A stretch of 64,000 nucleotides of DNA from Candidatus Ryanbacteria bacterium RIFCSPLOWO2_12_FULL_44_26. GTDB taxonomy: Bacteria > Patescibacteriota > Minisyncoccia > Ryanbacterales > HO2-45-13. Position numbers and translations under genes: made by a program. Positions 2,275 to 50,897 of this stretch are shown here, in pieces (position 1 is the stretch's first letter; the number at the start of each line of letters is the position of its first letter). The notes beneath the pieces were generated by a model. The model was not told where the DNA came from, ran no database searches, and saw only the letters and a list, made by a program, of their open reading frames with translations. The stretch is from positions 15,456-79,455 of the forward strand of contig MHOA01000013.1 in the NCBI GenBank assembly GCA_001821765.1, given 5' to 3'.

Positions 2275-2405
2275 TATGGGTGAATCTGTCTAAACTGGCA
2301 AATTGCATAAAAAATGAGCGGCTCGTTTTATGCCGCAATAGTGGCGTAAACAGAGGAAACCTGCTATATTTTTATTTACACGAATCTCGTTAGAGTTTAC
2401 AGCCT

Positions 2406-2510
2406 TATGAATTTCGTTTATCAAATAAGCAGCGCACATCCAAGAATCATGTTTACTGGTCATTATAATGTACGGAAATGCATTCAGCATTTCCTATCTC
2501 TAACGGGATG
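2406..2510 (+). repeat. Copy A of a conserved ~105-nt intergenic element (palindromic CATTATAATG, then hairpin GGAAATGC-ATTCA-GCATTTCC, then TATCTCTAACGGG-ATG)
   Basis: About 80-85% identical to 20072..20173 and 48499..48604. It lies directly upstream of the carbamoyltransferase start codon. Confidence 0.7.
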
Positions 2511-8917: not shown

Positions 8918-10351
8918 TTAATGTCCTTTTATAGAAGCAAGCGGCCTTATATATGCCAATGGTTGTATTATACCTTCCTGCTCAAACGCGCGCGTTACCT
9001 CAAAAAGTCCGTCCGAGTAGGTATGCGGAACACCTTTGAGTTTTTTTTCTTTGCGTTTTGAAATCAATGTTTGATGTAAAGGGTCTTTGGTGCTTTTCTT
9101 TTCATGTACATATCTTTCTATTGTTTTTGCGGCGCTTGGGGAAAGAGAATGAAAAGAAGACGTGATATTATTGCCCCCAACTCCAATATAGGAAAGTGTG
9201 TTATTGCTTCCGGAAATCATAACGGGTTTTTTAGAAAAGATGCGCATCGCATCTTGTCGGTGTACGATCAATTGTTGACCATCAATATATTCTTCAATAA
9301 TTGAATTATGCGCAGCATCCCAAAGAAACGATACCTTTGGGGCCTTTTCCGGCAAGCTTTCTTCCAAAGCGTCGATAAGACGCCGCAGTAGCGCTACGCG
9401 ATATCCGTAACCATAGTTCATTGCCGCTTTTATGGAGTGCAAAAGGCGTTTTCCTTCCTCGGTTTCCACCGGAATTTCCGGAAATGCTCTTGAGCTGAAA
9501 TAATATTTCCAGCGCTCCCGAAAGTGTTTTAAGCCATTTGGGTAGCCAAAATGAAAGATACATTTTAAGAAAAAAAGCGCGAATTTTTCTGATGTTTTAT
9601 TTTTTTTTCTATTGGCGAAATAGCGGCCTAAATGATAAGTGGCATGCCCCCCGCCGCCATGATAAAAAAACAGAAGCTGATTCTGCTTTATGTTAAATCG
9701 TTCCGCAAGCGCCTTGTCTTTAATAGTTTCAACATAGTGCAGTTCAAGAAAGTGGTTTCCCCCGAAATTATATCCCATTTCATGCTTGGCGTTTCTGTAA
9801 GAAGAGCGCGGGATGAGATGTTTGAGATTCAGGTTTTTCATTTCTTCGTTTGTAAAAAGAGAGCCCCCGTATTCAATATTTTCCAGTTCGCTTTCAGGGA
9901 GATTGTATTTTTTTGTTGCTGCTTTGGCGCCATGGACAAAAAAATCCTCTAATTCTGACTCTGTAAGGTCGTACGGGAGAAACGGTCGTTCTTCAATACC
10001 GATCCAGTTGAGAAACGTTTGAAACTTCCCGATTCTTTGGGGCACATGTATTCTTAAACGGCGCGCAAACATCACGAAAAATTCCGGCGAAAAGTCTTCT
10101 TTAAAAAGGGATGTGGTAAAAACAGACATGCCGCAATTAAGAGAGGGGGCCGAAAGCATCGGGACGATTGTTTTTTTAGTTGCTGTTACAAACTGGGGAG
10201 GAGATTCTAAACCCTCCTTTTTGTGGATATTCGGAAGGCAGATTGGAGGATAAGCAAGACTTTTGATCTTTTTTACGCGCTGCAATTGTTCACGGATGTA
10301 CGGGTCGGTGACTTTGTCGCAACCAAAGACCATGTCCATAAAAATTTCCAA
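8918..10351 (-). CDS. Divergent RtcB-family (RNA 3'-phosphate ligase-like) protein, paralog 1
   Basis: Conserved RtcB blocks are present: NCGM (GCGM), GNHFLELHY (GNHFIEI), FFYHGGGGHATYHLGRYF (HSGSRG...YF), AAHNSI, VHRQDA (RKGA) and the terminal ...IKGH. Two motifs deviate: PNIH in place of PDxH and FHSLS in place of HGAG. Confidence 0.5.
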   Translation of the reverse strand: MEIFMDMVFGCDKVTDPYIREQLQRVKKIKSLAYPPICLPNIHKKEGLESPPQFVTATKKTIVPMLSAPSLNCGMSVFTTSLFKEDFSPEFFVMFARRLRIHVPQRIGKFQTFLNWIGIEERPFLPYDLTESELEDFFVHGAKAATKKYNLPESELENIEYGGSLFTNEEMKNLNLKHLIPRSSYRNAKHEMGYNFGGNHFLELHYVETIKDKALAERFNIKQNQLLFFYHGGGGHATYHLGRYFANRKKNKTSEKFALFFLKCIFHFGYPNGLKHFRERWKYYFSSRAFPEIPVETEEGKRLLHSIKAAMNYGYGYRVALLRRLIDALEESLPEKAPKVSFLWDAAHNSIIEEYIDGQQLIVHRQDAMRIFSKKPVMISGSNNTLSYIGVGGNNITSSFHSLSPSAAKTIERYVHEKKSTKDPLHQTLISKRKEKKLKGVPHTYSDGLFEVTRAFEQEGIIQPLAYIRPLASIKGH

Positions 10352-10387
10352 TTACCAATTTCTAATTCCCAATTGGATTTTCAGCTG

Positions 10388-11815
10388 TCATCCTTTAAAC
10401 ACCGCTATTGGCCGCAGTTTTACTACCGGACGAGCAATACCTGCATTTTCCAGCTGTTGTACAACATAATCGACCCCTTCATTTGTAATGTGGTTTACAA
10501 TCTTTTGAAATGGCGGATGTGACTGGTAAATAACCGTTTTATATTTTTTGGGGTGAGTCGTTGTGTTATTTTTCTCCATCATTTTTTTTATTGTGGTGCC
10601 TGCGCCGTGATCTGATGAGAAAAGGTGCCGCTCGGCGTTTTGCATGCCGACCGCAATGTAGGAGTTGGTGTTGTTAAAACCAGATATAATAAGGGGTTTT
10701 TTGTCAAAGACACGATTTGCGGTATGCCGGTGCACAATAACGTTTTTTCCAGAAACGATTTCTTCGGTGATGGCGTTATGCGCGCCATCCCAAATTAAAC
10801 TCACCGTTGGTGTAGCAGGCGCCGCTTTGCCGAGACTGTCAATGATGCGTTTTATAATAGCCATGCGAAAACCATAGCTGTAATTGAGAGACGCCTTCGT
10901 TGCCATAAGAAGGCGTTTTCCTTCGGGTGAATTCGCAGGAATTTCCATAAAACGTGAAGAAAAAAAATAGTACCGAAGACGCTTTGGAGCATATTTCCAT
11001 TCCAAAGGGGAACCAAAGTGGAAAAGCGCTTTAAAAGCAAGTAGGTAGAGTTTTTGTGATGCCGTGTTTTTCTTTCTATTTCCAAAGTAGCGTCCTATAT
11101 GGTAAGAAACAGCGCCGCCGCCACCGTGATACATAATCACGATTCGATTTTTCTCCAGCCCCCATGCTTTTGCCAGCTTTTCGTCAAGCAATTCCTCAAT
11201 ATATTGAATTTCAAGAAAGTGATTTCCTTTAAACCCATATCCGATATTATGTCTCCCGGAGCGGTAAGAAACCCTTGGGAGGATTTTTTTTAAGTTTAAA
11301 CCGGCCAGTTCCTTTTTTGTAAAAAGCCCGCCCTCATATTCCACTTGTTTGAGGAAATCTGCCGGAAGGCCGTATATTGCTACAGCCGTTTTTGCTCCGT
11401 GTTTTATTATTTCTATAAAATCTCTTACAGAAAGGTCGTAGTGCATTTTCGGCCGCTCAATCAATCCAAACCAGTTAAGCATATTTTTTATTTTCCCGTA
11501 GTTTGGCCCCAACTCCGTTTGCATTGAGCTGTAGAAGCGTTCAAGAAACTGTTCAGTAATTGTTTCTTTTGAGATGGACGTAATAAGCGCCCCCATGCCG
11601 CAGCCAACTGACGGCGCTGTCAGTTCGGGCACTATGGTGTTTTGTGTCGCCGCTGCAAACGAGCAGGGACCCTCGGTGCGTTCTTTCATATGTAGATCTG
11701 GAAGGCATACGACAGGAAAAGCGAGACTCTTGAGTTTTGTAATGTGCGACAAAACACCTCGAATGCGGTTGTCTGAAAGATCACAGCCGAGAGAGTGAAT
11801 TTTAGAGGAATCCAT
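10388..11815 (-). CDS. Divergent RtcB-family protein, paralog 2 (canonical motifs better preserved)
   Basis: LPDLHMKE (PDxH), VGCGMGA, GNHFLEIQY, MYHGGGGAVSYHIGRYF, GAHNAI, VHRHTA, SSDHGAGT (His-nucleophile motif) and terminal AVFKG. Roughly 40% identical to paralog 1. Confidence 0.55.
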   Translation of the reverse strand: MDSSKIHSLGCDLSDNRIRGVLSHITKLKSLAFPVVCLPDLHMKERTEGPCSFAAATQNTIVPELTAPSVGCGMGALITSISKETITEQFLERFYSSMQTELGPNYGKIKNMLNWFGLIERPKMHYDLSVRDFIEIIKHGAKTAVAIYGLPADFLKQVEYEGGLFTKKELAGLNLKKILPRVSYRSGRHNIGYGFKGNHFLEIQYIEELLDEKLAKAWGLEKNRIVIMYHGGGGAVSYHIGRYFGNRKKNTASQKLYLLAFKALFHFGSPLEWKYAPKRLRYYFFSSRFMEIPANSPEGKRLLMATKASLNYSYGFRMAIIKRIIDSLGKAAPATPTVSLIWDGAHNAITEEIVSGKNVIVHRHTANRVFDKKPLIISGFNNTNSYIAVGMQNAERHLFSSDHGAGTTIKKMMEKNNTTTHPKKYKTVIYQSHPPFQKIVNHITNEGVDYVVQQLENAGIARPVVKLRPIAVFKG

Positions 11816-12947: not shown

Positions 12948-14279
12948 ATGAAAAAGGACATTCTTATCGTTGTATGCATTGCATTTGTGTTACGCCTCGC
13001 TTTTTCTTTTGTCGTGGCTGAGCGTGTGGGACCGGGCGCTTTTGAGGATGTACGGCCGATGAGTGATGCAGGACAATACATTGCTCTTACAAAGAATATA
13101 TTAGACAATCAGACGTTTACACTTTACGGAGAGCCGCACAGTTTTCGCACTCCCGGTTATCCGGCCTTTCTCGCATTTTGGTATTGGTTAAGCGGCAGCT
13201 GGTTTTTTAGTGTTGCAGTAGTGGGAAGCGCTTTGGGAGCCTTGAGTGCCGGTGTTACATATATCATTGGAAGAGAACTTTTTTCCCGCACTGTTGGTTT
13301 GCTGGCCGGAGCGTTTTTTGCATTTGAACCATATGGAGCGCACATGGCGGCGCGTCCCATGACAGAATCTGTTTACACAATACTTGTTGCGCTTCTCGCA
13401 TTTTTTATTGTTCGGTTTTACCGTTCTTCCTCAAAGCGTGCGGTGCTGTATATTTTCCTTTCAGGATTAGTTGTGGGGCTTGCCGTTTGGGTAAGGCCGC
13501 AACTATGGCCGTTTTATGTGTTCCCAATGACACTGGTTGTTTTTCTTACTTCCAGAAACGTTCATCAAGCCAAAACTGCCCTTCTGTCAGCAGTACTGTT
13601 CATTGGTGTCGCGGCGCTTGTTATTGTTCCATGGATTGTCCGGAATGCCGTGCTGTTTGGTGAGCCGTCCATAAGTTCCCAAGGTGGATGGAATCTCTAT
13701 TTTTATCACACAAAACGTTTTACCGGATCAGAGCGTTTCTTTGGTTTAGAAAACGATGAAATAAGGCGATTTTTGGAAATACGTCTTGGAAAGCCCGGAC
13801 CTGATGATATTCGAAGTATTGTATACCAGCCGATTTATTATACCGAGGCTTTTAACATCATTTTACAAAGGCCCGCATCTTACGCTTTTTGGCATATCAA
13901 AGAGTCGCTGGTGTTTTTTTATGATGATGGCATAAGAGATGTGCTTCGGCATATGGGCGCGGAATCTTCTTTTACGTTTGAGAGCATATCAGCAGCGCAG
14001 ATACTAAAATCGCCAACAGCTCTTTTGGCGTTGGGAGGCGTTGCTTTTTGGATAGGAGTATTTTTGCTTGCCGGATACGGCGCATGGCAGGGAATATGGA
14101 AGGGAACTCCTGTAATCAGGTGTGCGACCATTTTTTTTCTCTTGACTATTCTTTATGTGCCGTTTGTTGCTGGCACTCTTGCGGTGGCTCGTTTTCGCTT
14201 TCCATTGACGCCAATGATATTTCCGCTTTTTGGCTTTGGGCTTTGTATGTTATGGGAAAGATTAAAATGGGCCGTTTAG
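12948..14279 (+). CDS. GT-C fold ArnT/PMT_2-like glycosyltransferase (membrane)
   Basis: Polytopic. The first-loop motif MSDAGQYIALTKNILDNQTFTLYGEP is ArnT-like. Confidence 0.65.
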   Translation: MKKDILIVVCIAFVLRLAFSFVVAERVGPGAFEDVRPMSDAGQYIALTKNILDNQTFTLYGEPHSFRTPGYPAFLAFWYWLSGSWFFSVAVVGSALGALSAGVTYIIGRELFSRTVGLLAGAFFAFEPYGAHMAARPMTESVYTILVALLAFFIVRFYRSSSKRAVLYIFLSGLVVGLAVWVRPQLWPFYVFPMTLVVFLTSRNVHQAKTALLSAVLFIGVAALVIVPWIVRNAVLFGEPSISSQGGWNLYFYHTKRFTGSERFFGLENDEIRRFLEIRLGKPGPDDIRSIVYQPIYYTEAFNIILQRPASYAFWHIKESLVFFYDDGIRDVLRHMGAESSFTFESISAAQILKSPTALLALGGVAFWIGVFLLAGYGAWQGIWKGTPVIRCATIFFLLTILYVPFVAGTLAVARFRFPLTPMIFPLFGFGLCMLWERLKWAV

Positions 14280-18547: not shown

Positions 18548-20050
18548 TTGGTTATGTTTCATATCATATTTCCAATCATTGTCGTAGCTACGCTCACTTT
18601 TTCTTTTTACAGTCCCGTTGGTGATTTTACACCATTACAGAAGATAAGTCACATGCCCCGCTGTATTGGGAACTTCCTTACAACAATGAGCGCAGCACAT
18701 GACGCTTGCCGCGCGCTCGGAGTGGCCATTACTTCAACTCCAAAATTTTGGCGCGATGAATCCATCCCTTATGAAATAGCACGCACGTATGCAGAACTGG
18801 GGAAGCTTGATGTTGTGACAGAGCCGGGTGTTGTTGACGGCCGGCCCTATCTTACGCATGCAACGGGGTTTCCGCTTACCATTTCTTTAGCCGGATTTTT
18901 TAAACTGTTTGGTGTCGGGGTGGTTCAATCAAGGATATTTATGACGTTTTGGATTGTTGCCGTACTGATGGTGCTGTATTTAGTGCTGAGAAGTTTTTTT
19001 GGGCCGTTTCAGGCCGGTTTTGGCACCCTGTTAGTTTCTACGTTTAGCTCTTTTTATGCAAATGGCCGTACGTTTACCGGTGAAATTCCGGGCTTTCTCT
19101 TTTTACTGCTGGCTCTTTTTTTCATTTATAGAAAGAAACAATATATTCTTGGAGGCATGTTGCTCGCGATTGCTGTGGTGACAAAGCCGTCTGTGTACTT
19201 ATTGCTATTGCCCGCAGCAGCGTTTGAGTTTTTTATTTGGGATTTTAAGAAATCACTACGGTTTGGCGCTCGTTTAGCAATAGGAGTGCTCCCTGTAATT
19301 TTGTTATGGATTTTTATTATTTTACCCCAGCCTTTTAGCGTTGAGAGTTGGGCTGGCATGATTGATCTTTACAGACATCCGTTTAATGAACCGTCGCTGT
19401 TTTCAAGGTTGCCGGAGGCGTTTTTTGATCTTTTAACCAACTCCACGATATGGTACTTTGGGTTTTTGCTCGGGCTTATTTTGTTTTCCTACAGTAAAGG
19501 CGTTTTTAGAGATGATCAGAAGAGGTTATTGCATTTTTTCTTGCTTTTTGGCGTTTTGAGTATTATTTATTTTTTACGAAGCCCCGGGTGGTTTCGGTAC
19601 CTTCTCGTTACAGAGTTGTTCATCTTGGCGTTTACATTCCCAGCTGCAGATTCTTTAGTCCAAAAAAGAAGGTCGGCGGCTGTTTCGTTTGCCGGATTAT
19701 TAGTGGTGATTCAGGTATTGAATTTTTTCTTCTTTTCTGATATTCCTTCAGGGAGGGTAAGTATTAGCACGGCAGAGTTTATTAACAAGCAACTGCTTTT
19801 AGGCAACGATTCCACCATAGGGTTTATACACATGCCAACCGTAGCGCCGCTTATCTCATCCCACCGCAAGTATCAAATTGCACAGATTGGAGGGAAAGAA
19901 ACCTACGGCAAGCACCCTCTTATGCTTCCGGAAGAAAAACTTCCAGATTACATTATTGGCTATCAAGGTGAATATAACGACATCTTCGAGAGGCACTATG
20001 AGTTTGCGTTTGTAACGCCCGAAGGGTTTAAAATTTATAGAAAAAAATGA
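18548..20050 (+). CDS. GT-C fold ArnT/PMT_2-like glycosyltransferase (membrane)
   Basis: RDESIPYEIARTYAELGKLDVVTEPGVVDGRPYLTHATGFPL matches the ArnT DE...Y.EIA...G first-loop pattern. Polytopic. The exact start is uncertain. Confidence 0.55.
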   Translation: MVMFHIIFPIIVVATLTFSFYSPVGDFTPLQKISHMPRCIGNFLTTMSAAHDACRALGVAITSTPKFWRDESIPYEIARTYAELGKLDVVTEPGVVDGRPYLTHATGFPLTISLAGFFKLFGVGVVQSRIFMTFWIVAVLMVLYLVLRSFFGPFQAGFGTLLVSTFSSFYANGRTFTGEIPGFLFLLLALFFIYRKKQYILGGMLLAIAVVTKPSVYLLLLPAAAFEFFIWDFKKSLRFGARLAIGVLPVILLWIFIILPQPFSVESWAGMIDLYRHPFNEPSLFSRLPEAFFDLLTNSTIWYFGFLLGLILFSYSKGVFRDDQKRLLHFFLLFGVLSIIYFLRSPGWFRYLLVTELFILAFTFPAADSLVQKRRSAAVSFAGLLVVIQVLNFFFFSDIPSGRVSISTAEFINKQLLLGNDSTIGFIHMPTVAPLISSHRKYQIAQIGGKETYGKHPLMLPEEKLPDYIIGYQGEYNDIFERHYEFAFVTPEGFKIYRKK

Positions 20051-20071
20051 ATCCTGTTAGAGATCCAAGTT

Positions 20072-20173
20072 TTATGAATTTCGTTTTTCAAATGAGCGGC
20101 GCATATCCAAGAATGATGTTTACTGGCAATTATCATTCACGGAAATTTCCGATTTCCTATCTCTAATATAATG
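20072..20173 (+). repeat. Copy B of the conserved ~105-nt intergenic element
   Basis: TTATGAATTTCGTTTTTCAAATGAGCGGCGCATATCCAAGAATGATGTTTACTGG...GGAAATTTCCGATTTCCTATCTCTAATATA-ATG. The hairpin is shortened to GGAAAT/ATTTCC. Confidence 0.7.
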
Positions 20174-20869
20174 AAAGTTTCAATAATCATTCCTGTTTAC
20201 AACGAGGCAAAAACAATTCAGCGTATTGTTGATGTTGTTCGTGTCGCTTCATTCGGTTTTGAGGCCCAAAGAGAAATAATTGTCATTGACGATGGATCCG
20301 CTGACGGCACTTATGAGGCGCTGAAAAGCATTAAAGGAATTAAGGTGTTGCATTTTGAACGCAATCAAGGAAAGGGCGCGGCGCTAAAGGCAGGCTTTGG
20401 GCAGGCATCTGGGGATTTTGTTATTATTCAGGATGCGGATTTGGAATATGATCCAGCCGATTACGCTATTTTATTAAAACCCATGTATGAGGGGAAAGCC
20501 GACGTTGTGTTTGGTTCTCGGTTTAGGGGAGAATACCAGCGGGTGCTCTATTTTTGGCATTATTTCGGAAATTTTCTTTTAACGCTTCTTTCCAATATGT
20601 TTACTAATTTAAACCTCTCGGATATGGAAACGGGATATAAAGTGTTTAAGCGGGAGGTTGTCAAATCGTTCACTCCTCATTTAAGGTCAAAGCGTTTTGG
20701 TATAGAACCGGAAATAACAGCGCGTGTGGCACGGGGCGGTTGGCGTATCTATGAAGTGCCAATCAATTATTATGGACGCACATATGAGGAGGGCAAAAAG
20801 ATACGATGGTACGACGGGGTAAAAGCCATTGCAGCAATTTTATATTTTAATCTTTTTGATCGCCGATGA
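20171..20869 (+). CDS. GT2 polyprenyl-phosphate sugar synthase (DPM1-like)
   Basis: MKVSIIIPVYNEAKT...IVIDDGSADGT...IIQDADLEYDP...VFGSRF. Paralog of 16732..17445. Confidence 0.8.
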   Translation: MKVSIIIPVYNEAKTIQRIVDVVRVASFGFEAQREIIVIDDGSADGTYEALKSIKGIKVLHFERNQGKGAALKAGFGQASGDFVIIQDADLEYDPADYAILLKPMYEGKADVVFGSRFRGEYQRVLYFWHYFGNFLLTLLSNMFTNLNLSDMETGYKVFKREVVKSFTPHLRSKRFGIEPEITARVARGGWRIYEVPINYYGRTYEEGKKIRWYDGVKAIAAILYFNLFDRR

Positions 20870-25328: not shown

Positions 25329-25802
25329 ATGAATAAAAATCAAACAGCACCAACGGGAGAAATTGAGGGACTTATTATAAAAGATCTGGAAGTGCACAGC
25401 GATGATCGGGGGTACCTGTTTGAGCTCGCTCATTCGTATGATCTTCCGGGGTTTGGTCAGGTGTATGCAGTGGGTGATCCCGTGAGAGGTTCCATCAGGG
25501 CTTTCCATAAACATGACAAACTATGGGATCTTTTTTGTATCGTGAGCGGTTCGGCAAAGTTTGTGTTTGTTGATGACCGCGCTGACGCCAAGACTAAGGG
25601 TAATATGCAGATCATTGTCGCAGGCGAGCGTTCACCAAAACTTATTATTGTCCCTCCGGGGATTTACCACGGCTGGATGTCACTTGAAGATAACACTCTT
25701 TTGATCTCAACCGCTTCTGAGCTTTATAATCGTGAAGCTCCGGACGAATACCGCATTGATCCGTACACCTACGGGGATGTATGGACTGTGAAGGGAAAAT
25801 AA
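25329..25802 (+). CDS. RmlC-like cupin (dTDP-sugar 3,5-epimerase / ketoisomerase family)
   Basis: HSDDRGYLFEL...FHKHDKLWDLFCIVSGSAKFVFVDDR matches the RmlC-like cupin core. Confidence 0.5.
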   Translation: MNKNQTAPTGEIEGLIIKDLEVHSDDRGYLFELAHSYDLPGFGQVYAVGDPVRGSIRAFHKHDKLWDLFCIVSGSAKFVFVDDRADAKTKGNMQIIVAGERSPKLIIVPPGIYHGWMSLEDNTLLISTASELYNREAPDEYRIDPYTYGDVWTVKGK

Positions 25803-27901: not shown

Positions 27902-29188
27902 TTATTTTTTAAAAAGCAGAAAGGGCAGGAAATAATTTGCGAATCTCCCGATAATTCTTCCCCCCACCGCTCCCCAGATGCCGTAGGATGGAATAAGCAC
28001 GAGGAGTGCGAGAATCTGTATGAAAGGAACCGCAGTATTGTATGCGTATATCTTTTTCATGTTTCCTTCCGCTTTGAGCGCCGCGTTAAAGACACCAAAC
28101 GGAAAAGGGATAAGTGAAAGAGTAAAAATTTGTGAGAAGAGAACTGATTCCATGTATTTTGGAAATAGGACACGGAACAAAACAGGCGCTGCGAGTATAT
28201 ATATCACAACCAGCACGCCGGTTAGTATTGATGCTTTCAGCGCCTTTCCGGGAAGAGTTTTTTTGAGTTCTTGTGTTGTGTGTCTATCATTCGTTTTCAA
28301 CGAGAGTTTCGGAAATACAACAGTTTGGACAGTGCTTAAAAAAGCCTTCATTTGTTCTGGAATTGCGATTGCAAAAGAATACACAGCCAGCGCGCTTGAG
28401 CCGAGGAGGTTATAGAGAATGATTGCGTCAAGGTAATTTGAAGCAGTCTGTGGTACGTAGAGCGCGCTTAATTTTAGGCCGTATCTGATTGATTCCGGAT
28501 CATCAACGCTTTCTTTTGATATGAGCCGTACCGTTTTTCGGTAGAATATTGCGCTTGGAATTGCATGAGAAAGGAAATAGGTGCTTATAAGAAGTATCAT
28601 GCTTTGAGCATGCGGAAGCTTCCATACAATAATTGCAACCATCGCGCTCATCATAGAAAGGCCATAGATAACGTGCGCCCAGATGTTGTAGTATGTTTTT
28701 TTTCGAAATTTCATTTTACCTTCAAAAAACCCTCTCCAGACGCTCAAGCTTTCATTAAACGGCGCGATGAATGAGGCGATGACGAACGCCGCTCCAAGCA
28801 CCGCGTTTCCTTGCCAAAAAAGATAACTTCCGATGAGGATTCCCGACAGGGTAATTCCAAAAGATGAAAAAAGTATAATCCGCGCACCTCTTATGAACGC
28901 ATAATCGTAGCCGCGGGAAACAGCTCTTCGGATTGCAACACCCATCCCCGGAAGCGCAAAAACACCCAATAAGCCCAAAACGCTCAGAACGTATCGGTAG
29001 TCGCCATATGCGTCTTTAAGCAGGAACCGGGCGTATAGCATTGAAAGCGCCAGAGCAATGATGGTCCCGATCGCTTTTCCTAGTATCAGCCAAAAACTCC
29101 CGCGCGCTACATAGGCGGTGTCTATTTTGAGAAAGCGTTCCAGCGCCTTGAGCGCGCTTTCCATAACGCGCATCCCTCTAGAGATCAT
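27902..29188 (-). CDS. Wzx-like (MOP superfamily) polysaccharide/oligosaccharide flippase
   Basis: About 12 TM helices. The N-terminal region matches polysaccharide biosynthesis protein (PF01943-like) architecture. Confidence 0.65.
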   Translation of the reverse strand: MISRGMRVMESALKALERFLKIDTAYVARGSFWLILGKAIGTIIALALSMLYARFLLKDAYGDYRYVLSVLGLLGVFALPGMGVAIRRAVSRGYDYAFIRGARIILFSSFGITLSGILIGSYLFWQGNAVLGAAFVIASFIAPFNESLSVWRGFFEGKMKFRKKTYYNIWAHVIYGLSMMSAMVAIIVWKLPHAQSMILLISTYFLSHAIPSAIFYRKTVRLISKESVDDPESIRYGLKLSALYVPQTASNYLDAIILYNLLGSSALAVYSFAIAIPEQMKAFLSTVQTVVFPKLSLKTNDRHTTQELKKTLPGKALKASILTGVLVVIYILAAPVLFRVLFPKYMESVLFSQIFTLSLIPFPFGVFNAALKAEGNMKKIYAYNTAVPFIQILALLVLIPSYGIWGAVGGRIIGRFANYFLPFLLFKK

Positions 29189-29298
29189 GGCTCTATGTAT
29201 ATCGGTATACCGTTACAGAAGAGAAAATCTTTGGATTGTGTCATAACGGCAAGTTTAATGTACGGAAATCATCAATGTTCCGTTTCGTAAAACACATT

Positions 29299-35373: not shown

Positions 35374-36984
35374 ATGACGAGCCGAGCAACAAAATTTCGT
35401 GAACTTTTAAATTCCGGTAAGCTGGAGTTTCTTTGTGAAGCCCATAACGGTATTTCTGCAAAGATTGTTGAAGAAGCCGGTTTTAAAGGGATTTGGGCAA
35501 GCAGTCTCACCATTTCCGCAGCGATGGGCGTTCGCGACAATAACGAGGCAAGCTGGACACAGATTTTGGAGGTATTGGAATTTATGAATGATGCGACGAC
35601 CATTCCGATTTTGCTTGATGCGGATACGGGATACGGCAATTTTAATAACGTGAGGCGGCTGGTCAAAAAATTAGAACAGCGCAACATCGCCGCTGTATGT
35701 ATAGAGGACAAGCGGTTTCCGAAAACAAACAGTTTATTGGCGGGCGGACGTCAGGAGCTTGCGGATATTGATGAATTCTGCGGGAAAATTAAAGCGGCAA
35801 AAGATACTCAAACCAATCCGGATTTTTCTGTTATAGCTCGCGTTGAGGCTTTTATTGCGGGTTTAGGACTTGATGAGGCTTTAAAGCGTGCAGGCGCCTA
35901 TCATCGGGCAGGCGCAGACGGCATTTTGATTCACAGTAAATCCAAGAAACCTGATGAAGTACTCGCTTTTAAAAAAGAATGGGGAGATCGTTCCCCGGTG
36001 ATTATTGTACCGACCGCATATTATACAACCCCTGTTGAGGTTTTTGAGGAGGCAGGTTTCGGTATCGTCATCTGGGCAAATATGATTTTGCGAGGCGCTG
36101 TGAAGGCCATGAAGGAAGCATCAAGTCATTTAGCGCGAGAAAAATCCCTTCTTACCCTTGAAGATCATATTGTCCCCATTACGGAAATTTTCCGGCTTCA
36201 GGGGTCAGACGAGCTTAAATTTGCAGAGGAGCGTTATCTTCCAGTGGCTGGAGAACATGTCCGGGCTGTTATTCTTGCTGCGTCCCGCGGCAAAGAGTTT
36301 GGTTCCCTAACCGCTCAAAAGCCAAAAGCTCTTTTAGAGGTTGCCGGCAGGCCGATATTGTATAAACAAATAGACACGCTTCGCGAGATTGGCGTGAAAG
36401 ATGTTACGGTAGTGCGCGGGTTTCAAAAAGAAATGATCAACGCTCCACGCATTCGTTATATTGACAATGATGAATACGAAAGCACACAAGAAGTTGTTTC
36501 GTTATGGAAAGGAGTTCAAAACACGTCAGGAAAAACCATCATCGCATACGGCGACATTCTGTACAAAAAATATATACCCACCACCCTTCTTGAAACGGAC
36601 GGCGATTTTGTTATTGCTGTTGATTCGGACTGGAAGTCAAGTTATGAGAAAGGGCGCTATGCAGATTTTGTTTCCTGTTCCGAGCCTTATCAGAAGAAGG
36701 TGTTTGATCAAAAAGTATGGCTGAAGGACATGGGGACAACCCTTGCGCGCGATAGTATTTGCGGAGAGTGGATTGGCCTTCTTTCGGTTTCTGCCGGAGG
36801 CCTTGAAACGCTTCAAAACGTACTTGGAGATTTATCTAAGAAAGATGACTTTGGAAAAATGCGTATGGCCGAACTTTTTCGCGAGCTTATCAAACGAGGA
36901 CATGAAATGAAGGTGTTATATATTCTCGGACACTGGCTTGATGTAGATGACATTATGGATCTTAGCGAGGCCAGTGTGTTCTAG
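35374..36984 (+). CDS. pepM: Phosphoenolpyruvate mutase fused to a C-terminal nucleotidyltransferase (phosphonate cytidylyltransferase-like) domain
   Basis: The N-terminal half carries the PEP mutase motif [12 protein letters not shown] (EDKxxxKxNS) and [10 protein letters not shown]. The C-terminal half has [32 protein letters not shown], an NTP-transferase fold. Confidence 0.85.
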
Positions 36985-36993
36985 TTTGCGTAT

Positions 36994-38127
36994 ATGCTTC
37001 AATGTGACGCGTTTTATAATTTATTAAAAAAACATGGCATAACTTTTTTTACTGGTGTTCCGGATTCGCTTTTAAAAGATTTCTGCGCATACGTGGCGGA
37101 TCATACGGATCCTAAAAATAATATTGTCGCCGCTAATGAAGGAGGGGCAGTTGCTTTGGCTGCAGGACATCATTTGGCAACAGGAAACATTGGTTTGGTG
37201 TATATGCAAAATGCAGGCGTGGGCAATGCTGTAAACCCTCTTGTGTCTCTTGTTGACGGGGAAGTGTACAGTATTCCGGTTCTTTTATTTATTGGATGGA
37301 GGGGAGAGCCGGGCGTAAAGGACGAGCCGCAGCATATAAAGCAAGGCAGGATTACCATCCCTTTATTGGAAGTTCTCGGAATTCCGCACGAAGTGCTCCC
37401 GGATGTTTTTGAGGAAGCAAAACGCGTCTTAAAAAAAGCAGTTGGTTCTATGACCCAAAGAAGCGCTCCCTACGTATTCATTATAAGAAAAGGCATCTTT
37501 GAGCCCTACCTCTTAAAGAAAAAAGAATATTCCTCGTATAAACTTACGCGGGAGCGCGTTATCCAGTCCATTGCCGGGCAATTGGACAACAGAGACATTG
37601 TCATCAGCACAACCGGAAAAACATCCAGGGAACTGTTTGAATATAGAGAAAGGGTTGGGCAAGATCATTCAACAGATTTTTTGACTGTTGGGTCCATGGG
37701 GCATGTCTCTCAAATCGCGCTTGGTCTTGCTTTATCAAAACCAAAAAGAAACGTTTATTGTTTGGATGGTGATGGTTCTCTCATCATGCATATGGGTTCT
37801 TTGGCCATAAATGGCACACGAGCGCCTAAAAACTTTAAGCATATTGTCTTAAATAACGGAGCGCATGACTCTGTCGGGGGACAGCCGACTGCCGGTTTTA
37901 AGATTGACATTGTTTCTATTGCTAAGGCATGTGGTTATAAGGCAGCTTTTGCGGCGGAAGTGGAAAACGAACTTCTAGAAAAGATACATACACTTAAAGA
38001 AACGGCAGGACCTGTATTGTTGGAGGTGAGAATCAATACGGGAAGCCGCAAAGACCTCGGACGACCGACAATAGATCCTAAAGAAAGTAAAAAGGCATTT
38101 ACAAAATTTCTTCAGGATAATGATTAG
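36994..38127 (+). CDS. ppd: Phosphonopyruvate decarboxylase (TPP-dependent)
   Basis: TPP-binding GDGSLIMHMGSL...NNGAHDSVGGQ. About 375 aa. Immediately downstream of pepM. Confidence 0.85.
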   Translation: MLQCDAFYNLLKKHGITFFTGVPDSLLKDFCAYVADHTDPKNNIVAANEGGAVALAAGHHLATGNIGLVYMQNAGVGNAVNPLVSLVDGEVYSIPVLLFIGWRGEPGVKDEPQHIKQGRITIPLLEVLGIPHEVLPDVFEEAKRVLKKAVGSMTQRSAPYVFIIRKGIFEPYLLKKKEYSSYKLTRERVIQSIAGQLDNRDIVISTTGKTSRELFEYRERVGQDHSTDFLTVGSMGHVSQIALGLALSKPKRNVYCLDGDGSLIMHMGSLAINGTRAPKNFKHIVLNNGAHDSVGGQPTAGFKIDIVSIAKACGYKAAFAAEVENELLEKIHTLKETAGPVLLEVRINTGSRKDLGRPTIDPKESKKAFTKFLQDND

Positions 38128-39253
38128 AGAATATTTCGGAGTAGGGAGCATAGAAAATGTAAGATTGATATTAGCTGGTGTTGCTCCAAGGAGCATTTTT
38201 CTTGTTACGGGAAAAAGATCCTATGACGATTGTGGTGCCAGCAAGGCGCTTGGAAATTTATTGGCGGAATATTCAGTGTCTCGGTTTAATGATTTTGATG
38301 TCAATCCAAACATAGATAACATCCGGAAAGGGGTTGATCTGTTTAAAAAAAAGAGATGTGATCTTGTTATCGCTGTCGGTGGTGGGAGTGTTATGGATAC
38401 CGCAAAGGTTGTAAACATTCTTTCAGCGCACGATGAAGACGCGGCGCTGTACGTTAAAAAGGAAAGAAAAATACGGTGCAGCGGAAAACCTCTCGTTGCC
38501 GTTCCGACGACTGCTGGTTCCGGTGGTGAGGCGACGCATTTTGCCGCTCTTTATATTGATAAAAAAAAATATTCTCTTGAAGATGAGCGTCTATTGCCCA
38601 CGTATGCGATTATAGATCCGCAGTTTACTTTTTCTCTCCCAAAAAGAATTACCGCGTCAACTGGCATGGACGCGCTTTCACAGGCAATAGAATCATATTG
38701 GAGTATTTATTCATCCGATGAGTCAAAAGCGTATGCAAGAGAAGCAATTATGCTTGCGCGGGAACATATTGTACATGCCGTCAATCAGCCGACAATAGAA
38801 GCGCGAATTGCGATGAGCAGGGCGGCGCATGCGGCGGGAAAGGCGATTAATACTACCAGGACAACGGCATGTCATGCCGTTTCTTATCCTATAACGGCGT
38901 ATTTCGGCGTTCCGCACGGTCATGCTGTTGGTCTTACGCTTTCGCGCATGTTTGCGTACAATAGTACTCCAAGCGAGGCAGATATTTTAGATATAAGGGG
39001 AGTGGCATATGTGAAAGGTGTTATGCGGGAACTCGCTGTGTTGTTGGGAGCTCAAGACACAGAAAGCGCCAAGAAAGCAATAGATTCCATAATGAGAAAG
39101 ATTGGACTTGAAATGCATTTGCGCGAGTTAGGAATCAGCGGCAATGATATTGAAATAATCATAAAAAACGGTTTTGACCCTGAAAGAGTAAAAAACAACC
39201 CACGGCTTGTAACCGAACAGGCCCTTAGAAAAATATTAAACGATATTCGTTAG
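38120..39253 (+). CDS. Iron-containing (group III) alcohol dehydrogenase, probable phosphonoacetaldehyde reductase
   Basis: GGGSVMDTAKVV motif plus His-rich Fe-binding region. Its position after ppd mirrors FomC/PhpC. Confidence 0.65.
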   Translation: MIREYFGVGSIENVRLILAGVAPRSIFLVTGKRSYDDCGASKALGNLLAEYSVSRFNDFDVNPNIDNIRKGVDLFKKKRCDLVIAVGGGSVMDTAKVVNILSAHDEDAALYVKKERKIRCSGKPLVAVPTTAGSGGEATHFAALYIDKKKYSLEDERLLPTYAIIDPQFTFSLPKRITASTGMDALSQAIESYWSIYSSDESKAYAREAIMLAREHIVHAVNQPTIEARIAMSRAAHAAGKAINTTRTTACHAVSYPITAYFGVPHGHAVGLTLSRMFAYNSTPSEADILDIRGVAYVKGVMRELAVLLGAQDTESAKKAIDSIMRKIGLEMHLRELGISGNDIEIIIKNGFDPERVKNNPRLVTEQALRKILNDIR

Positions 39254-39264
39254 TCCGCGTTTTA

Positions 39265-40026
39265 GTGAATATGAAAGCCATTATTATAGCAGCGGGATTG
39301 GGGAGCCGGCTCGCCCCGCTGACGGAGCATAAGCCAAAGTGCCTGTTGGATGTGGGCGGAAAAAGCATTCTTCAACGTCAACTTGATACTCTTCGTTCAG
39401 CTGATATACACAATATATCTCTTATTAAAGGATATAAAAAAGAACAGATACACTTTCCGGATCTTAAGTATTATGTAAATGATAATTACAGGAACAATAA
39501 CATACTTTATTCTCTGATGAGCGCGGAGGATGAGATGGATTCGGAATTTATTGCACTTTATGCAGACATAATCTTTACCAGCGAGGTCGTCGAGGAGTTG
39601 AAACGGTGTACGGCAGACATAGCCATTGTTGCCGATATTGCTGATCGTAAGTATTATGATGGGTGGGTCGATCATCCCACAGAAGAGGTGGAAAACATCA
39701 TCTTTGATGATGATCACAATGTTATTGCCATAGGCAAGCATATTACCGCACCCGCCGAGTTCATCGGTATGTTGAAATGTACAAGGAGAGGCGCTAAAGT
39801 TTTTAAGGATTATTTTCATAGAGCGCAAAAAGAATTTTCCGGCAAACCTTTTATGCGCTCAAGCGTATTTGAGAAAGCCTATCTTACCGATTTTATCCAA
39901 TATCTTACGGACAACGGCGTAAAAGTTAAGTGCGTTCTTATTAAACAGGGATGGTATGAAATAGACACGATTCAAGATTTAGAAATGGTCAATAGCATAT
40001 TTAAGAAAGCGCGCAGCCATGTCTGA
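39265..40026 (+). CDS. Nucleotidyltransferase (LicC/phosphocholine-cytidylyltransferase-like)
   Basis: MKAIIIAAGLGSRLAPLTEHKPKCLL N-terminal NTP-transferase motif. Confidence 0.6.
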   Translation: MNMKAIIIAAGLGSRLAPLTEHKPKCLLDVGGKSILQRQLDTLRSADIHNISLIKGYKKEQIHFPDLKYYVNDNYRNNNILYSLMSAEDEMDSEFIALYADIIFTSEVVEELKRCTADIAIVADIADRKYYDGWVDHPTEEVENIIFDDDHNVIAIGKHITAPAEFIGMLKCTRRGAKVFKDYFHRAQKEFSGKPFMRSSVFEKAYLTDFIQYLTDNGVKVKCVLIKQGWYEIDTIQDLEMVNSIFKKARSHV

Positions 40027-42414: not shown

Positions 42415-43341
42415 ATGCGCACGCTAAAACAACCGAAAGTCAGCATTCTCTTGCCCTCATATAATAGAGCTTACTTGTTACCTTTCACGATAGAGAACAT
42501 TCTTGAACAAACGTGGAAGGATTGGGAGCTCATTATTGTTGATGACGGGTCGCTTGATAATACTGATGAGGTAATAAAAAATTTCGATGATCGAAGGATA
42601 ACATATATAAAACACCAAGTAAATGCAGGTGAGGCTGCTGCAAGAAACACAGCTCTTGCTGCGGCGAGAGGAGAATATATCGCAAACCAAGATTCAGATG
42701 ACGAATGGTTCCCCGAGAAGCTGGAGGAGGAGGTGTATTTGCTTGATCGATCACCGGCGAGAGTTGGTGCTGTGTATTCTTCGTTTCATAAAACCTTATT
42801 TGACGGAAGCGAAGAAATTGTTCCTTCAGCAATTCACCACCAAAAAGAAGGAAACCTTGTAAACACTTTTTTACGCAGCGACTTTTATATCACTGGACAA
42901 GCTCTCCTAATTAAAAAAGAGTGCTATAAGAACGTTGGTGGATATGATGAGAAATTGCGCGTGCTTAATGATGCTGAGTTTCTTATAAGGTTAGCAAGTC
43001 AATATGAATTTGTTCATAATCCTCACGTTCGTGTTCGTATAAAACGTTTTGAAGACAGTATTTCGAGAAACTTTAAGATGAGATTGGTTTCCAGAGAGTA
43101 TATTTTGCACAAACACGAAGATCTTTTTAAAAAATTCCCCGACTCATTTGCCCGTTACTCATATCGCATAGGGCACACGCATGCACTTTTGGGGAATACA
43201 GACAAAGCGCGCATGTATCTCCGCAAAGCGTTTGTTTTTAGTCCTCTCCATATAAAATATATCGCGGCATTTTTGCTTTCCCTTACCGCTTCATCATGGC
43301 TGTACCGGACGCTCGGTCGTCTTAAAACCAAATGGATGTAA
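42415..43341 (+). CDS. Glycosyltransferase family 2
   Basis: VSILLPSYNRAYLL...LIIVDDGSLDNT...DSDDEW (DxD). Confidence 0.8.
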   Translation: MRTLKQPKVSILLPSYNRAYLLPFTIENILEQTWKDWELIIVDDGSLDNTDEVIKNFDDRRITYIKHQVNAGEAAARNTALAAARGEYIANQDSDDEWFPEKLEEEVYLLDRSPARVGAVYSSFHKTLFDGSEEIVPSAIHHQKEGNLVNTFLRSDFYITGQALLIKKECYKNVGGYDEKLRVLNDAEFLIRLASQYEFVHNPHVRVRIKRFEDSISRNFKMRLVSREYILHKHEDLFKKFPDSFARYSYRIGHTHALLGNTDKARMYLRKAFVFSPLHIKYIAAFLLSLTASSWLYRTLGRLKTKWM

Positions 43342-44885
43342 CCATAGCAATGAAGAAATGTATCATTCATCCGTATCTTTTTGCGGTTTTTCCCATTGTT
43401 TTTCTTCTCGCGCATAATATCGAACAGACATTTTTCAGCAATATAATTGTTCCGGCGCTCTTTGCCGTTTTTATTACTGTTTTTATCTTCGTCATCCTGC
43501 GTTTTAGTGTTGGGGATAATAAAAAGGCAGGACTCATTACATCTTTATTTCTCATACTGTTCTTTTCTTTCGGCCATATTCGCCGTTTGGTCGAAGATTT
43601 CGTGATAGGAGGACTTGATATAGGAAGAGACCGACATATCCTTTTATTCTCTGCAGCAATTTTTGTTTTGGCAACATATTGGATATTGCAGACCAAAAAA
43701 AAACTGCACAATCTCACCACAGTTGCAAATGTAATGGCTGTTACGCTGGTTATTATCCCGCTTGTCAGTATCGGGATGTATGAATTTAAGCGGAGCCCGG
43801 AAACCGAGTTTCCGAGTGAAAACTTGGTTTCCGATTCGGACGGAGCGTTAAAGAAACATGAGGCGCTTCCCAACATATATTACATAATTTTGGATGGCTA
43901 CGCGGCCCAGAGCACTCTGAAAGAAATTTATAATTACGATAATGCGGCATTTCTTCAATTCCTTGCAGAAAGGGGGTTTTTTGTCGCAGACGAGTCGAGG
44001 AGTAACTACACACAGACTTTTTTGTCGCTTTCCTCATCGCTCAATATAAGGTACATTAACGACCTAACCGAGAAGGTTGGAATGGATTTACAAAACCGCG
44101 CAATCCCATATCAGATGATCGAAGACAACACCATATGGCGCTTCTTAAACTCACGGGGATACCGGTTTATACATATAAGCTCCGGTTCTACCGAGATGAC
44201 AGATAAGAATGGAAACGCAGATATTAATTTTAAGGGCGGCAAATTGGACGAATTTTCCTTGACCTTATTAGAGACAACAGCGCTTTACCCGTTTATAAGG
44301 CACTCGGTTGAGGCAGATGCAAGAGAACGCGTTTTATATTCTTTTGATTCGTTGGCCAGAATATCCCGTCTTTCAGGTCCTAGGTTTACGTTTGCGCATA
44401 TTCTTGTGCCACATTCTCCTTATGTTTTCGGGCCGAACGGCGAAAAAGTTGAAAATCCCAAATTGCAGCTTTCCGGAGACAATTATTGGAAATTCAAAGA
44501 ACATTATGTAAATCAAGTGATCTTTACTAATAAGAAAATCATGGCACTCGTTGAGGCAATATTAAAAACTGAAAAAAATCCCCCGATTATTATTCTTCAG
44601 GGGGATCATGGTCCTGCTTCCGAAGGCGAGGGCACAAAAGGTCTTTCTCTTCTCAAACATATACTCGTTAAGGAGCGGATGAAAATATTTAATGCTTATT
44701 ATCTTCCAGTGGATGGCAATAAGCTTTTGTACAAATCAATAACTCCGGTAAATTCTTTCCGGCTTATTTTCAGTCATTATTTTGGAGCTGATTATCCGCT
44801 TCTTGAGGACGAGAGTTATTTTTCTACTGAGGAAGAGCCTTATACATTTATTAATGTAACCGATATAGCAAGAGAGGATTATTAA
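43332..44885 (+). CDS. Membrane-anchored alkaline-phosphatase-superfamily protein (LtaS/sulfatase/phosphoethanolamine-transferase-like), copy 1
   Basis: Five N-terminal TM helices. NIYYIILDGYAAQS is a metal-site-like block and ILQGDHGPAS is the C-terminal GDHG motif of the AP superfamily. Confidence 0.5.
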   Translation: MDVTIAMKKCIIHPYLFAVFPIVFLLAHNIEQTFFSNIIVPALFAVFITVFIFVILRFSVGDNKKAGLITSLFLILFFSFGHIRRLVEDFVIGGLDIGRDRHILLFSAAIFVLATYWILQTKKKLHNLTTVANVMAVTLVIIPLVSIGMYEFKRSPETEFPSENLVSDSDGALKKHEALPNIYYIILDGYAAQSTLKEIYNYDNAAFLQFLAERGFFVADESRSNYTQTFLSLSSSLNIRYINDLTEKVGMDLQNRAIPYQMIEDNTIWRFLNSRGYRFIHISSGSTEMTDKNGNADINFKGGKLDEFSLTLLETTALYPFIRHSVEADARERVLYSFDSLARISRLSGPRFTFAHILVPHSPYVFGPNGEKVENPKLQLSGDNYWKFKEHYVNQVIFTNKKIMALVEAILKTEKNPPIIILQGDHGPASEGEGTKGLSLLKHILVKERMKIFNAYYLPVDGNKLLYKSITPVNSFRLIFSHYFGADYPLLEDESYFSTEEEPYTFINVTDIAREDY

Positions 44886-44888
44886 CGT

Positions 44889-46289
44889 ATGAACAGTGAT
44901 TACTACGTCATAAGCGGCATTGTTGTTCTTGCTCTTGTGGTGGCGCTTGTTGTTGCTTTGGAGACCGGCGCGATCTCCGATATTTTCACACCCATTGCAA
45001 AGGCAACAACGGGTTCCGCTTCGCCCCAGCACAGTCAGGTTCGCGAGGCAGTAAGTTTTTTGAATACAGGGACGTTTAATAACGGCGGCCCAGGCTACAC
45101 CGGCATGCAGAGGGGCCCGGTCTACCCTTTGGTTTTGGCCGCCGTTTTTTCACTTTTTGGATTATATGTAGGAGCTATTCATATCATCAATTTTTTATTT
45201 TTAGCACTCGCAATTGTTTTCTTATGGCGTTTAAGCAAACAATATTTTAAGGGCGGATGGGAGTTTATTCCTCCCCTGGCGCTTGTCCTTGTTGGAAGGG
45301 CAACAGCACGGGTCTGGGTTGCAAGCTATGAAACGCTTACTCTTTTTTTGTCTATCCTCGCAATCTTTGCTTTTTTGGAATATCGCAGCACCGGAAAGAC
45401 TGTGTGGCTAGTGACCGGTACAGCCGCTTTTTCCTTATGGGTCCTTGAGAAACCGGCCGCTTTTTATTTCATTCCGGTTATTCTTGTTTTTTTAGTCTTA
45501 TGGCGGCGTCCTTATGCTTCGCCAAAAAAGGTTTTAACCCATTCGCTTATTTTTCTTTTTGTTACGGCAGCTTTTATCGGCTCATGGTCATTAAGAAACC
45601 ACAGGGTCATAGATACATGGCAGTTAGGCAGCGGCGGCCACGCAGTATTGCTTAGTTCCAGTCAGGTTGATTTTAATCGTGAAGAGCTTGTCTCATTGGG
45701 ACTTAGTTTGTCGGTTGGCGATTTTATTGGCAGCAGAATTTACAAACACTACCCGCAAAACGCAAAGCCAAAAGCGTGGGACCCATCGATTCTTGACGAT
45801 CGATGGTATCAGCAGGGATGGTATGTAAAAGATATTGACGGCAGTATTATTACAAAAACAGAGCTGGATAAAAGAATGTATGCAGAAGCGGTACAAAATA
45901 TCAAGCGCCGTCCAATGAAGTTTCTTTTAACAGGTATTTTCAAATTTATGCGTCTCAATGCTCCAGAAAACCATCGCGGGCAGGAGATCACACATCTTTT
46001 TGTTGGAACATATTTAGAAATTCCGACAGCAGTGAAAGCGGCGATTATCCTTTTTATTCGCATCATATGGTTCATGTTTCTTGTTGTTGTTCTTTATGCC
46101 ATGATAAAGCACATAAGGGACTGGAGTACTTGGGGAATTTTATTTTTAGTGATATTCTATTACAACGGCGCGCATGCGTTACTTACACATGCGCTGGCGC
46201 GCTATATCTTGGTTATACTTCCTTTTTACTTCATTTTCTTTACGGAAGGAGTGCGCATCTTATATGGAAAATACACGGAGGCAAGATAA
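44889..46289 (+). CDS. GT-C fold PMT_2/ArnT-like glycosyltransferase (membrane), copy 1 of a duplicated pair
   Basis: Polytopic. TGTFNNGGPGYTGMQRGPVYPLVLAAVF. Paralogous to 50898..52328. Confidence 0.55.
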   Translation: MNSDYYVISGIVVLALVVALVVALETGAISDIFTPIAKATTGSASPQHSQVREAVSFLNTGTFNNGGPGYTGMQRGPVYPLVLAAVFSLFGLYVGAIHIINFLFLALAIVFLWRLSKQYFKGGWEFIPPLALVLVGRATARVWVASYETLTLFLSILAIFAFLEYRSTGKTVWLVTGTAAFSLWVLEKPAAFYFIPVILVFLVLWRRPYASPKKVLTHSLIFLFVTAAFIGSWSLRNHRVIDTWQLGSGGHAVLLSSSQVDFNREELVSLGLSLSVGDFIGSRIYKHYPQNAKPKAWDPSILDDRWYQQGWYVKDIDGSIITKTELDKRMYAEAVQNIKRRPMKFLLTGIFKFMRLNAPENHRGQEITHLFVGTYLEIPTAVKAAIILFIRIIWFMFLVVVLYAMIKHIRDWSTWGILFLVIFYYNGAHALLTHALARYILVILPFYFIFFTEGVRILYGKYTEAR

Positions 46290-47758: not shown

Positions 47759-48118
47759 TTATGTATGGTTTTGGTAGATGTTGCCGATGATTTCAAGCGG
47801 CTTTTTTTTGTCAATATTCCAGCCGCAACGCTCATCATTCCACGTTACTGAAATCATATTGCCATTAGATTGGTCTTTCACAATATCTCCTTCATAAATC
47901 TCTTTTCCATGCCCATCTTTTAGTCCTATGTACTGCATGAGGATCATGTTTTCCCCGTCTTGTCTTACCAAACTTCCTAACTTAAATTCAATTATATAAT
48001 TCAAACGGTACTCTTCGTTCCTATTCATCGTTGACAAATTAAATGACAGCGTATTTACCATTGTCATTTCTTTGTGTTGTTTATCCCAAGCTCTGAATTT
48101 AATGTCTCTATAAGGCAT
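47759..48118 (-). CDS. YopX-like phage-associated protein
   Basis: IKFRAWDKQHKEM...MQYIGLKDGHGKEIYEGDIV...EIIGNIYQN matches the YopX domain consensus. Confidence 0.5.
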   Translation of the reverse strand: MPYRDIKFRAWDKQHKEMTMVNTLSFNLSTMNRNEEYRLNYIIEFKLGSLVRQDGENMILMQYIGLKDGHGKEIYEGDIVKDQSNGNMISVTWNDERCGWNIDKKKPLEIIGNIYQNHT

Positions 48119-48125
48119 GTTCCGT

Positions 48126-50895: not shown

Positions 50896-50897
50896 GC

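Follow-up and report, generated by a model that had tools for sequence, protein, structure and literature searches.

How does one and the same stretch of some 120 nucleotides come to stand directly in front of unrelated genes in a genome that has almost no intergenic space to spare? The question is raised by a window of 64,000 nucleotides (the whole stretch of DNA analysed here) from a metagenome-assembled genome of Candidatus Ryanbacteria, a member of the candidate phyla radiation sampled from the Rifle aquifer. The window is one long cell-envelope glycan locus, with many PMT_2-type glycosyltransferases, GT1 and GT2 enzymes, sugar epimerases and methyltransferases, along with a carbamoyltransferase-SxtJ-GDSL module, a phosphonate module and a flippase. 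An earlier note on this DNA, made from the sequence alone, had drawn attention to a repeated intergenic element within it and had read that element as a shared promoter plus 5'-leader, or a small structured RNA, that co-regulates dispersed glycan genes. Here we ask whether the copies, their ends, their folds and the junctions at which they lie are better accounted for by regulation or by mobility.

Copies, ends and fold of the repeat

A repeat search of the window returns one family with three members, which we call copies A, B and C (Table 1), so that the earlier note was right both about their homology and about the three sites; the left boundary, however, lies ~22 nt further left than it had been placed. 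Pairwise identity is somewhat more variable than the 80-85% originally given, a range that fits A and C (84% in a gapped alignment) but not A and B (78%) or B and C (70%); over ungapped columns the latter two values become 83% and 75%. A 29-nt degenerate core pattern matches exactly copies A, B and C, with 0.00 matches expected by chance. A covariance model built from the three copies scores them at 159.8, 145.2 and 133.9 bits, the next-best match in the window being the antisense of copy A, at 18 bits. A search with such a model had been proposed as a check of the original description: in ~80 kb only A, B and C score above 18 bits, including the 15.5 kb of the same contig beyond the window, where the model finds no further copy, whereas the related loci described below proved empty. 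All three copies point the same way, on the leading strand as judged by GC skew.

The ends of the element, which are absent from the earlier description, are terminal inverted repeats of 12-14 bp, ATCYCGTTAGAG...CTCTAACGGGAT. When the left end is compared with the reverse-complemented right end, 12 of 14 positions agree in copy A, 11 of 14 in copy C and, counted by hand, 11 of 14 in copy B. In every predicted fold these ends pair with each other, giving a closing helix of 10-14 bp together with a subterminal hairpin, and the consensus fold agrees. Folding-energy z-scores on the plus strand are -3.45 for A, -1.95 for B and -4.58 for C, and in the fold of copy A the A and U of the downstream start codon are themselves paired. 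The hairpin was correctly described in all three copies: as GGAAATGC-ATTCA-GCATTTCC in A, with a CTTCA loop in C, and in shortened form (a stem of 6-7 bp) in B. In copy C it is weakly terminator-like according to a terminator scan. The palindrome CATTATAATG, said to be present in each copy, is found in A and C, but copy B reads AATTATCATT instead.

How strongly does this structure appear to be maintained? In the three sequences, 93.7% of the cells of the named structure are paired, as against 35-49% when the partners are slid along each other. The stem-preserving variation claimed for the hairpin nonetheless lacks statistical support, as only a single pair in the entire structure is changed on both sides, and in an alignment of three sequences 171 of 500 shuffles do as well. 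The pair in question lies in the closing helix of copy B, where C-G has become U-A, and the hairpin of the same copy is kept despite several mutations; taken together, the two-sided change and the retained hairpin hint at selection on structure.

A fragment elsewhere in the window deserves mention as a possible fourth copy, D. The 14-mer TAATGTACGGAAAT is indeed identical over 14 nt to copy A, and a short hairpin (ACGGAA..TTCCGT) does follow it. The covariance model gives the region 10.2 bits (E=3.4), which is not significant, and its right end is no longer recognisable. However, a sequence resembling the left end, ATCCCTCTAGAGAT, stands 84 nt upstream of the 14-mer, compared with 82 nt in A and C, and because of this near-identical spacing we regard D as probably a badly decayed copy. 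The view that C and D are orphaned or decayed is a reasonable one. Across ~80 kb the tally is three copies that are clear and one that is probably a relic, none of them outside this single glycan locus. On the minus strand the left-end-like sequence of D reads ATGATCTCTAGAGGGATG and overlaps the first codons of the flippase gene, to which it gives a second in-frame ATG exactly where the end of copy A meets its own gene. A further exact match of 13 nt to the left end of copy C, GATCCCGTGAGAG, lies inside a dTDP-sugar isomerase-like gene and was set aside; similarity ends beyond the 13 nt and the match is probably due to chance.

Table 1. Positions of the repeat copies, their parts and surrounding features in the window
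Feature	Positions	Strand	Sequence or remark
Copy A	2384-2509	+	126 nt
Copy A, left flank	2380-2383	+	ACGA; 3/4 match to right-hand ATGA, 2508-2511
Copy A, left inverted repeat	2384-2395	+	ATCTCGTTAGAG
Copy A, hairpin	2474-2494		ATTCA loop
Copy A, right inverted repeat	2498-2509	+	CTCTAACGGGAT
Copy B	20051-20172	+	122 nt (repeat search ran to 20176)
Copy B, left flank	20047-20050	+	ATGA; repeated as ATGA, 20171-20174
Copy B, left inverted repeat	20051-20064	+	ATCCTGTTAGAGAT
Copy B, hairpin	20141-20157		shortened
Copy B, right inverted repeat	20159-20172	+	ATCTCTAATATAAT
Copy C	48478-48603	+	126 nt
Copy C, left inverted repeat	48478-48491	+	ATCCCGTGAGAGAT
Copy C, hairpin	48568-48588		CTTCA loop
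Copy C, right inverted repeat	48590-48603	+	GTCTTTAACGGGAT
Copy D, probable decayed copy	29172-29297	+	left end, 14-mer and hairpin
Copy D, left-end-like sequence	29172-29185		ATCCCTCTAGAGAT
Copy D, 14-mer	29256-29269		TAATGTACGGAAAT
Copy D, left end read on minus strand	29172-29188	-	ATGATCTCTAGAGGGATG
Probable chance match to left end of copy C	25476-25488		GATCCCGTGAGAG
Methyltransferase gene, neighbour of copy C	48656-49315	-	
99-aa gene, neighbour of copy C	48126-48425	-	
YopX-domain gene and 99-aa gene	47759-48425	-	
Tandem duplicate, first unit	43332-46289		sulfatase-like gene, then PMT_2
Tandem duplicate, second unit	49321-52328		sulfatase-like gene, then PMT_2
Phosphonate module	35374-40026		
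Two RtcB paralogues	8918-11815	-	

Gene junctions and an empty site in a related locus

The genome is compact: same-strand genes are mostly separated by fewer than 40 nt, or overlap by 4 nt at an ATGA, about 45% of genes begin with ATGA, and a Shine-Dalgarno sequence precedes few of them. Copies B, C and D supply three of the gaps of at least 100 nt. Copy A sits between a divergent PMT gene and the carbamoyltransferase gene, with its final AT supplying the A and T of the carbamoyltransferase ATG (2508-2510). Copy B is internal to an operon and occupies the entire gap between two genes, from the TGA stop of PMT_2 (20048-20050) to the ATG of GT2 (20171-20173). The observation that an ATG comes directly 3' of these two copies (at 2508 and 20171) thus stands, as does the observation that copy C has an ATA in place of the ATG and no plus-strand gene downstream. 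Copy C lies antisense in a 230-nt gap between two minus-strand genes.

We also looked at the bases that flank the element. GA is directly repeated on both sides of A and B, a match of two to four bases in two copies that is statistically weak. Copy C has ATG(A) on its left and AC on its right, and hence no clean direct repeat. Directly 5' of the element, the tetranucleotide A[T/C]GA is found in three of three copies.

Does a related locus tell us what the junction looks like when no element is there? For the GT2 gene, the closest available relative is an ENA metagenome contig (L022), whose gene order (epimerase on the minus strand, PMT_2, GT2, PMT_2, GT1) matches that of the window, with protein identities of 30% for the epimerase, 51% for the first PMT_2, 71% for GT2 and 54% for the second PMT_2. 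The alignments run to the last residue of PMT_2 and begin from the same methionine of GT2. In L022 the PMT_2 stop and the GT2 start overlap by 4 nt at a single ATGA (caATGAaaa), in the context aaaaaacaATGAaaata; ...aaaaaacaATGAaaatatca, whereas the window reads ...aaaaaaATGA[element]ATGAaagtttca at the same junction, with 120 nt of element between stop and start. At the level of sequence, this comparison shows copy B to be an insertion, or a precise-excision polymorphism, at an ATGA overlap that is empty in L022, a locus distant enough (51-71% protein identity) for loss in L022 to be indistinguishable from gain in the window. The glycan locus as a whole is rearranged relative to related loci, but synteny around copy B is intact with respect to L022. 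Carbamoyltransferase genes of relatives also begin with ATGAATAT, as in the window, so that copy A likewise sits on an ATGA start.

The element appears to be confined to this lineage as far as the related loci can tell. Run on L020-L027, L096 and L097 (7-8 loci, ~125 kb), with default filters or with filters off, the covariance model finds no copy, and the sequence upstream of the relatives' GT2 and carbamoyltransferase genes is unrelated to the element. Two further loci, L098 and L099, which we consulted as gene tables alone, have a 4-nt overlap and a 14-nt gap before GT2 and hence no room for it. One of the related loci, L025 (from a Candidatus Ryanbacteria CG10 relative), has an unrelated intergenic palindrome of 131 nt that takes up the gap between two minus-strand genes (positions 13993-14135 of that locus), with arms of 36 nt that are 83% complementary; relatives may carry palindromic intergenic elements of their own.

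Wider scans were likewise without further copies. The internal pattern ATTTCGTTT..ACGGAAAT..ATTTCC has 8 matches among genome contigs, 8 among metagenome contigs and 1 among viral contigs; all 16 from genome and metagenome contigs proved unrelated on inspection, several of them reading as one conserved coding sequence. A pattern based on the ends has 62 matches in viral contigs, none of which the covariance model recognises, and no parent insertion sequence with the same ends emerged from pattern scans of these collections. Keeping in mind that the collections apparently do not include the source organism, these negatives carry little weight for close relatives. Contigs with an identical GT2 or 99-aa protein are the same clone, at 100% identity. 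Rfam 15 gives no match at gathering scores and none at the element sites at E up to 10, and scans for tRNA and tmRNA found none.

A proposed mobile repeat weighed against its rivals

What kind of element would leave these traces? With moderate confidence we favour the reading that the copies belong to a family of small MITE-like mobile elements, ~122-126 bp long and non-autonomous, that is particular to this Candidatus Ryanbacteria lineage. The grounds are the inverted repeats at the ends, the GA/ATGA repeats beside A and B, and the site that is empty in L022. MITEs are small, have inverted and direct repeats, lack a transposase, form an RNA stem-loop and occur as empty and filled sites, and the contrast between an empty and a filled site is the classical signature by which their insertions are called (PMC3184786). 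The present element is well within the size range, below ~400 bp, has no transposase ORF (its sole open frame spans 34-43 codons), is bounded by terminal inverted repeats and is missing at the homologous position in L022. Mobility accounts at once for copies that lie against start codons, for the empty orthologous junction and for copy C as an antisense orphan.

The way in which such an element might come to rest at start codons can be sketched as follows. Insertion would duplicate GA (or ATGA). With an inverted repeat that ends in AT, landing in a gene-start ATGA would rebuild the downstream ATG, and in copy B it would also spare the upstream TGA. In a genome this compact and this poor in Shine-Dalgarno sequences only insertions at gene boundaries would survive, which would explain why A and B, and probably D as well, lie against start codons. 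In RNA, the ends would pair into a closing helix of 10-14 bp beside or over the start codon. Any effect of that helix on translation or mRNA stability would be a putative by-product of insertion, and the element may have acquired a secondary effect on expression.

Several observations count against a mobile repeat. There are only three clear copies, in one orientation and in one glycan locus; the direct repeat is very short (2 bp for GA, and ATGA has one mismatch in A) and absent at C; and no insertion sequence is known that shares these ends and could be the parent. Two unrelated genes are preceded by the element in the same orientation and exactly at the ATG, as a selected leader would equally predict, and the two-sided helix change and the retained hairpin of copy B, with their hint of selection on structure, also belong on this side.

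These last points bring us back to the regulatory interpretation in which a cis-acting leader or "mobile promoter", comprising the -10-like TATAAT (2464-2469 in copy A), the hairpin and the closing helix over the start codon, would control transcription or translation of the carbamoyltransferase and GT2 operons. It has something to recommend it: A and B point the same way and each stops precisely at the start codon of a glycan gene, the two genes being unrelated; the folds are stable and in copy A engage the A and U of the start codon; none of the three copies has lost the hairpin, whose stem in B is re-formed at 7 bp; one pair is compensatory; and upstream sequences propagated in front of non-homologous genes have been described before (PMC3488235). 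We nevertheless consider it unlikely. The orthologous L022 junction lacks any spacer, and in other relatives the element is missing ahead of both GT2 and carbamoyltransferase. Copy B lies inside an operon, where no promoter is needed, and its -10-like box has degraded to TATCAT; the promoter scan calls nothing of the sigma-70 type in either A or B; copy C runs antisense to the genes around it and has no plus-strand gene to serve; there is no Rfam match even at the permissive threshold; and with three sequences covariation is no better than in shuffles. The co-regulatory module proposed in the earlier note is unsupported on these grounds.

Could the copies be coding instead? Small protein genes or upstream ORFs of 34-43 codons (such as MNPVRDPSFMNFVFQMSGAYPRMMFTGNYHSRKFPISYL in copy B), translationally coupled to the flanking genes, would be in keeping with a plus-strand frame that is stop-free across A, B and C, with an ATG in B that overlaps the PMT_2 stop and a TAA that falls 4 nt before the GT2 ATG, and with a TGA in A that overlaps the carbamoyltransferase ATG. 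Yet there are no homologues among 5.8 billion proteins, and none of the pattern matches from back-translated scans (43 in genome_contigs and 125 in metagenome_contigs) was confirmed. The frame opens with ACG in A; copy C has ATA and, in addition, a 1-nt deletion; and a 4-nt indel shifts the frame in B, although the DNA after it (ATTTCCTATCTCTAA) is identical to that of A. Differences between A and C fall 5, 6 and 6 by codon position, with 4 of the 17 being synonymous, as expected under neutrality (counted by hand). An equally long open frame also arises in ~5-6% of shuffles for a given frame and in ~26% for any of the six. We therefore reject a conserved small protein, on the lack of homologues, the lack of codon-position bias and the frameshift in B, and hold the coding explanation in general to be very improbable. 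More remote still is the suggestion that the copies are site-specific recombination sites akin to integron attC, bounding shuffled glycan gene cassettes. The core boxes of attC sites are GTTRRRY and RYYYAAC, in the order RYYYAAC...GTTRRRY (AAC...GTT) on either strand. The ends of the element carry GTTAGAG and CTCTAAC, which resemble these boxes, all copies have one orientation, and the locus is rearranged relative to its relatives. However, the box order is inverted here (GTTAGAG...CTCTAAC, that is, GTT...AAC), the window has no integrase or recombinase, and the unbroken synteny around copy B with respect to L022 marks B as a plain insertion rather than a cassette boundary. We give this explanation hardly any credence.

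The open frame may be considered from a different angle. On this view it begins with the left ATG(A) and closes at the right (A)TGA or shortly ahead of it, and the two copies that precede genes, A and B, retain an ATG in frame as well as a stop no more than 4 nt away from the ATG of the gene that follows, both of which the orphan C has lost. One might imagine that the element is adapted to the compact, Shine-Dalgarno-poor genomes of the candidate phyla radiation, targeting ATGA overlaps and rebuilding both codons, with the bridging stop-free ORF relaying translational coupling between the genes that the element separates and melting the closing helix over the start codon. We think this improbable.

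If the mobile-repeat reading is right, the copies would make up a hitherto undescribed family of small mobile repeats, hosted by a member of the candidate phyla radiation, and would show that such an element can be tolerated in a genome almost without intergenic space by way of ATGA junctions and a rebuilt start codon. It would also warn annotators that upstream repeats within a genome are not to be read as regulons. The kind of element is well known in other bacteria and fairly ordinary; it is the family itself that is new, and it opens no long-standing question.

Likeness to known elements and the surrounding locus

Among described elements, the closest parallels to a mobile repeat of this kind are bacterial MITEs such as Correia of Neisseria, RUP of S. 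pneumoniae and Nezha of cyanobacteria, which are alike in size (~100-160 bp), in having terminal inverted repeats and, as at copies A and B, short direct repeats, in their lack of a transposase gene and their intergenic location (features as in PMC3184786), as well as in the RNA stem-loop formed from the ends and the contrast of empty and filled sites between related genomes. In contrast to these, the present element has no sequence similarity to described families, is seen in three or four copies at one locus, has no identified parent insertion sequence and resides in a candidate phyla radiation bacterium; its direct repeat is GA/ATGA, whereas that of Correia- or IS630-type elements is typically TA. 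A full-text literature search for MITEs in the candidate phyla radiation, a host group in which such repeats are hardly documented, gave passing mention only.

ERIC sequences offer a second comparison. They are imperfect palindromes of ~127 bp that lie in transcribed intergenic regions in either orientation to transcription, and their ends pair into a long mRNA helix that can affect mRNA stability or translation (PMC3184786). Length is nearly equal, and siting in transcribed intergenic regions and the pairing of the ends into a helix are shared, but sequence and host are unrelated, and whereas an ERIC sequence is palindromic over almost its whole length, pairing between the ends is limited here to the terminal 12-14 nt, alongside a separate subterminal hairpin. 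Putative mobile promoters, highly similar stretches of 50-100 nt or more upstream of non-homologous genes in one genome (Matus-Garcia et al. 2012, PMC3488235), resemble copies A and B in preceding non-homologous genes. They differ in that no promoter is predicted here, one copy lies inside an operon and another is antisense. PATEs, which derive from IS200/IS605 elements, have a subterminal hairpin and insert 3' of a fixed tetranucleotide, and they have no terminal inverted repeats. The subterminal hairpin near the right end, the A[T/C]GA directly 5' of three of three copies and the single orientation are reminiscent of PATEs; the clear terminal inverted repeats are not, a left-end hairpin is not convincing, and TnpA/TnpB were not seen. 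Nor does the window hold a transposase, an integrase or any other mobility gene.

The surroundings of copy C have some features of their own. A gene for a YopX-domain protein, a phage-associated family, and one for an unannotated 99-aa protein adjoin it; the latter has one weak partial match in viral contigs, which is uninformative. Together with these two genes, copy C stands between the halves of a diverged tandem duplicate, each half consisting of a sulfatase-like gene (517 and 524 aa) followed by a PMT_2 glycosyltransferase gene (466 and 476 aa), at ~72% DNA identity and a spacing of ~6010 nt.

Two other parts of the glycan locus may be recorded here. The phosphonate module comprises a PEP mutase-nucleotidyltransferase fusion, a TPP-dependent decarboxylase, an iron alcohol dehydrogenase and a cytidylyltransferase, and its presence suggests that in this member of the candidate phyla radiation the glycan is decorated with phosphonate. 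Finally, two adjacent RtcB RNA-ligase paralogues lie within the glycan locus, and RtcB also adjoins GT1-GT2 genes in three of the related loci (L020, L098 and L099).
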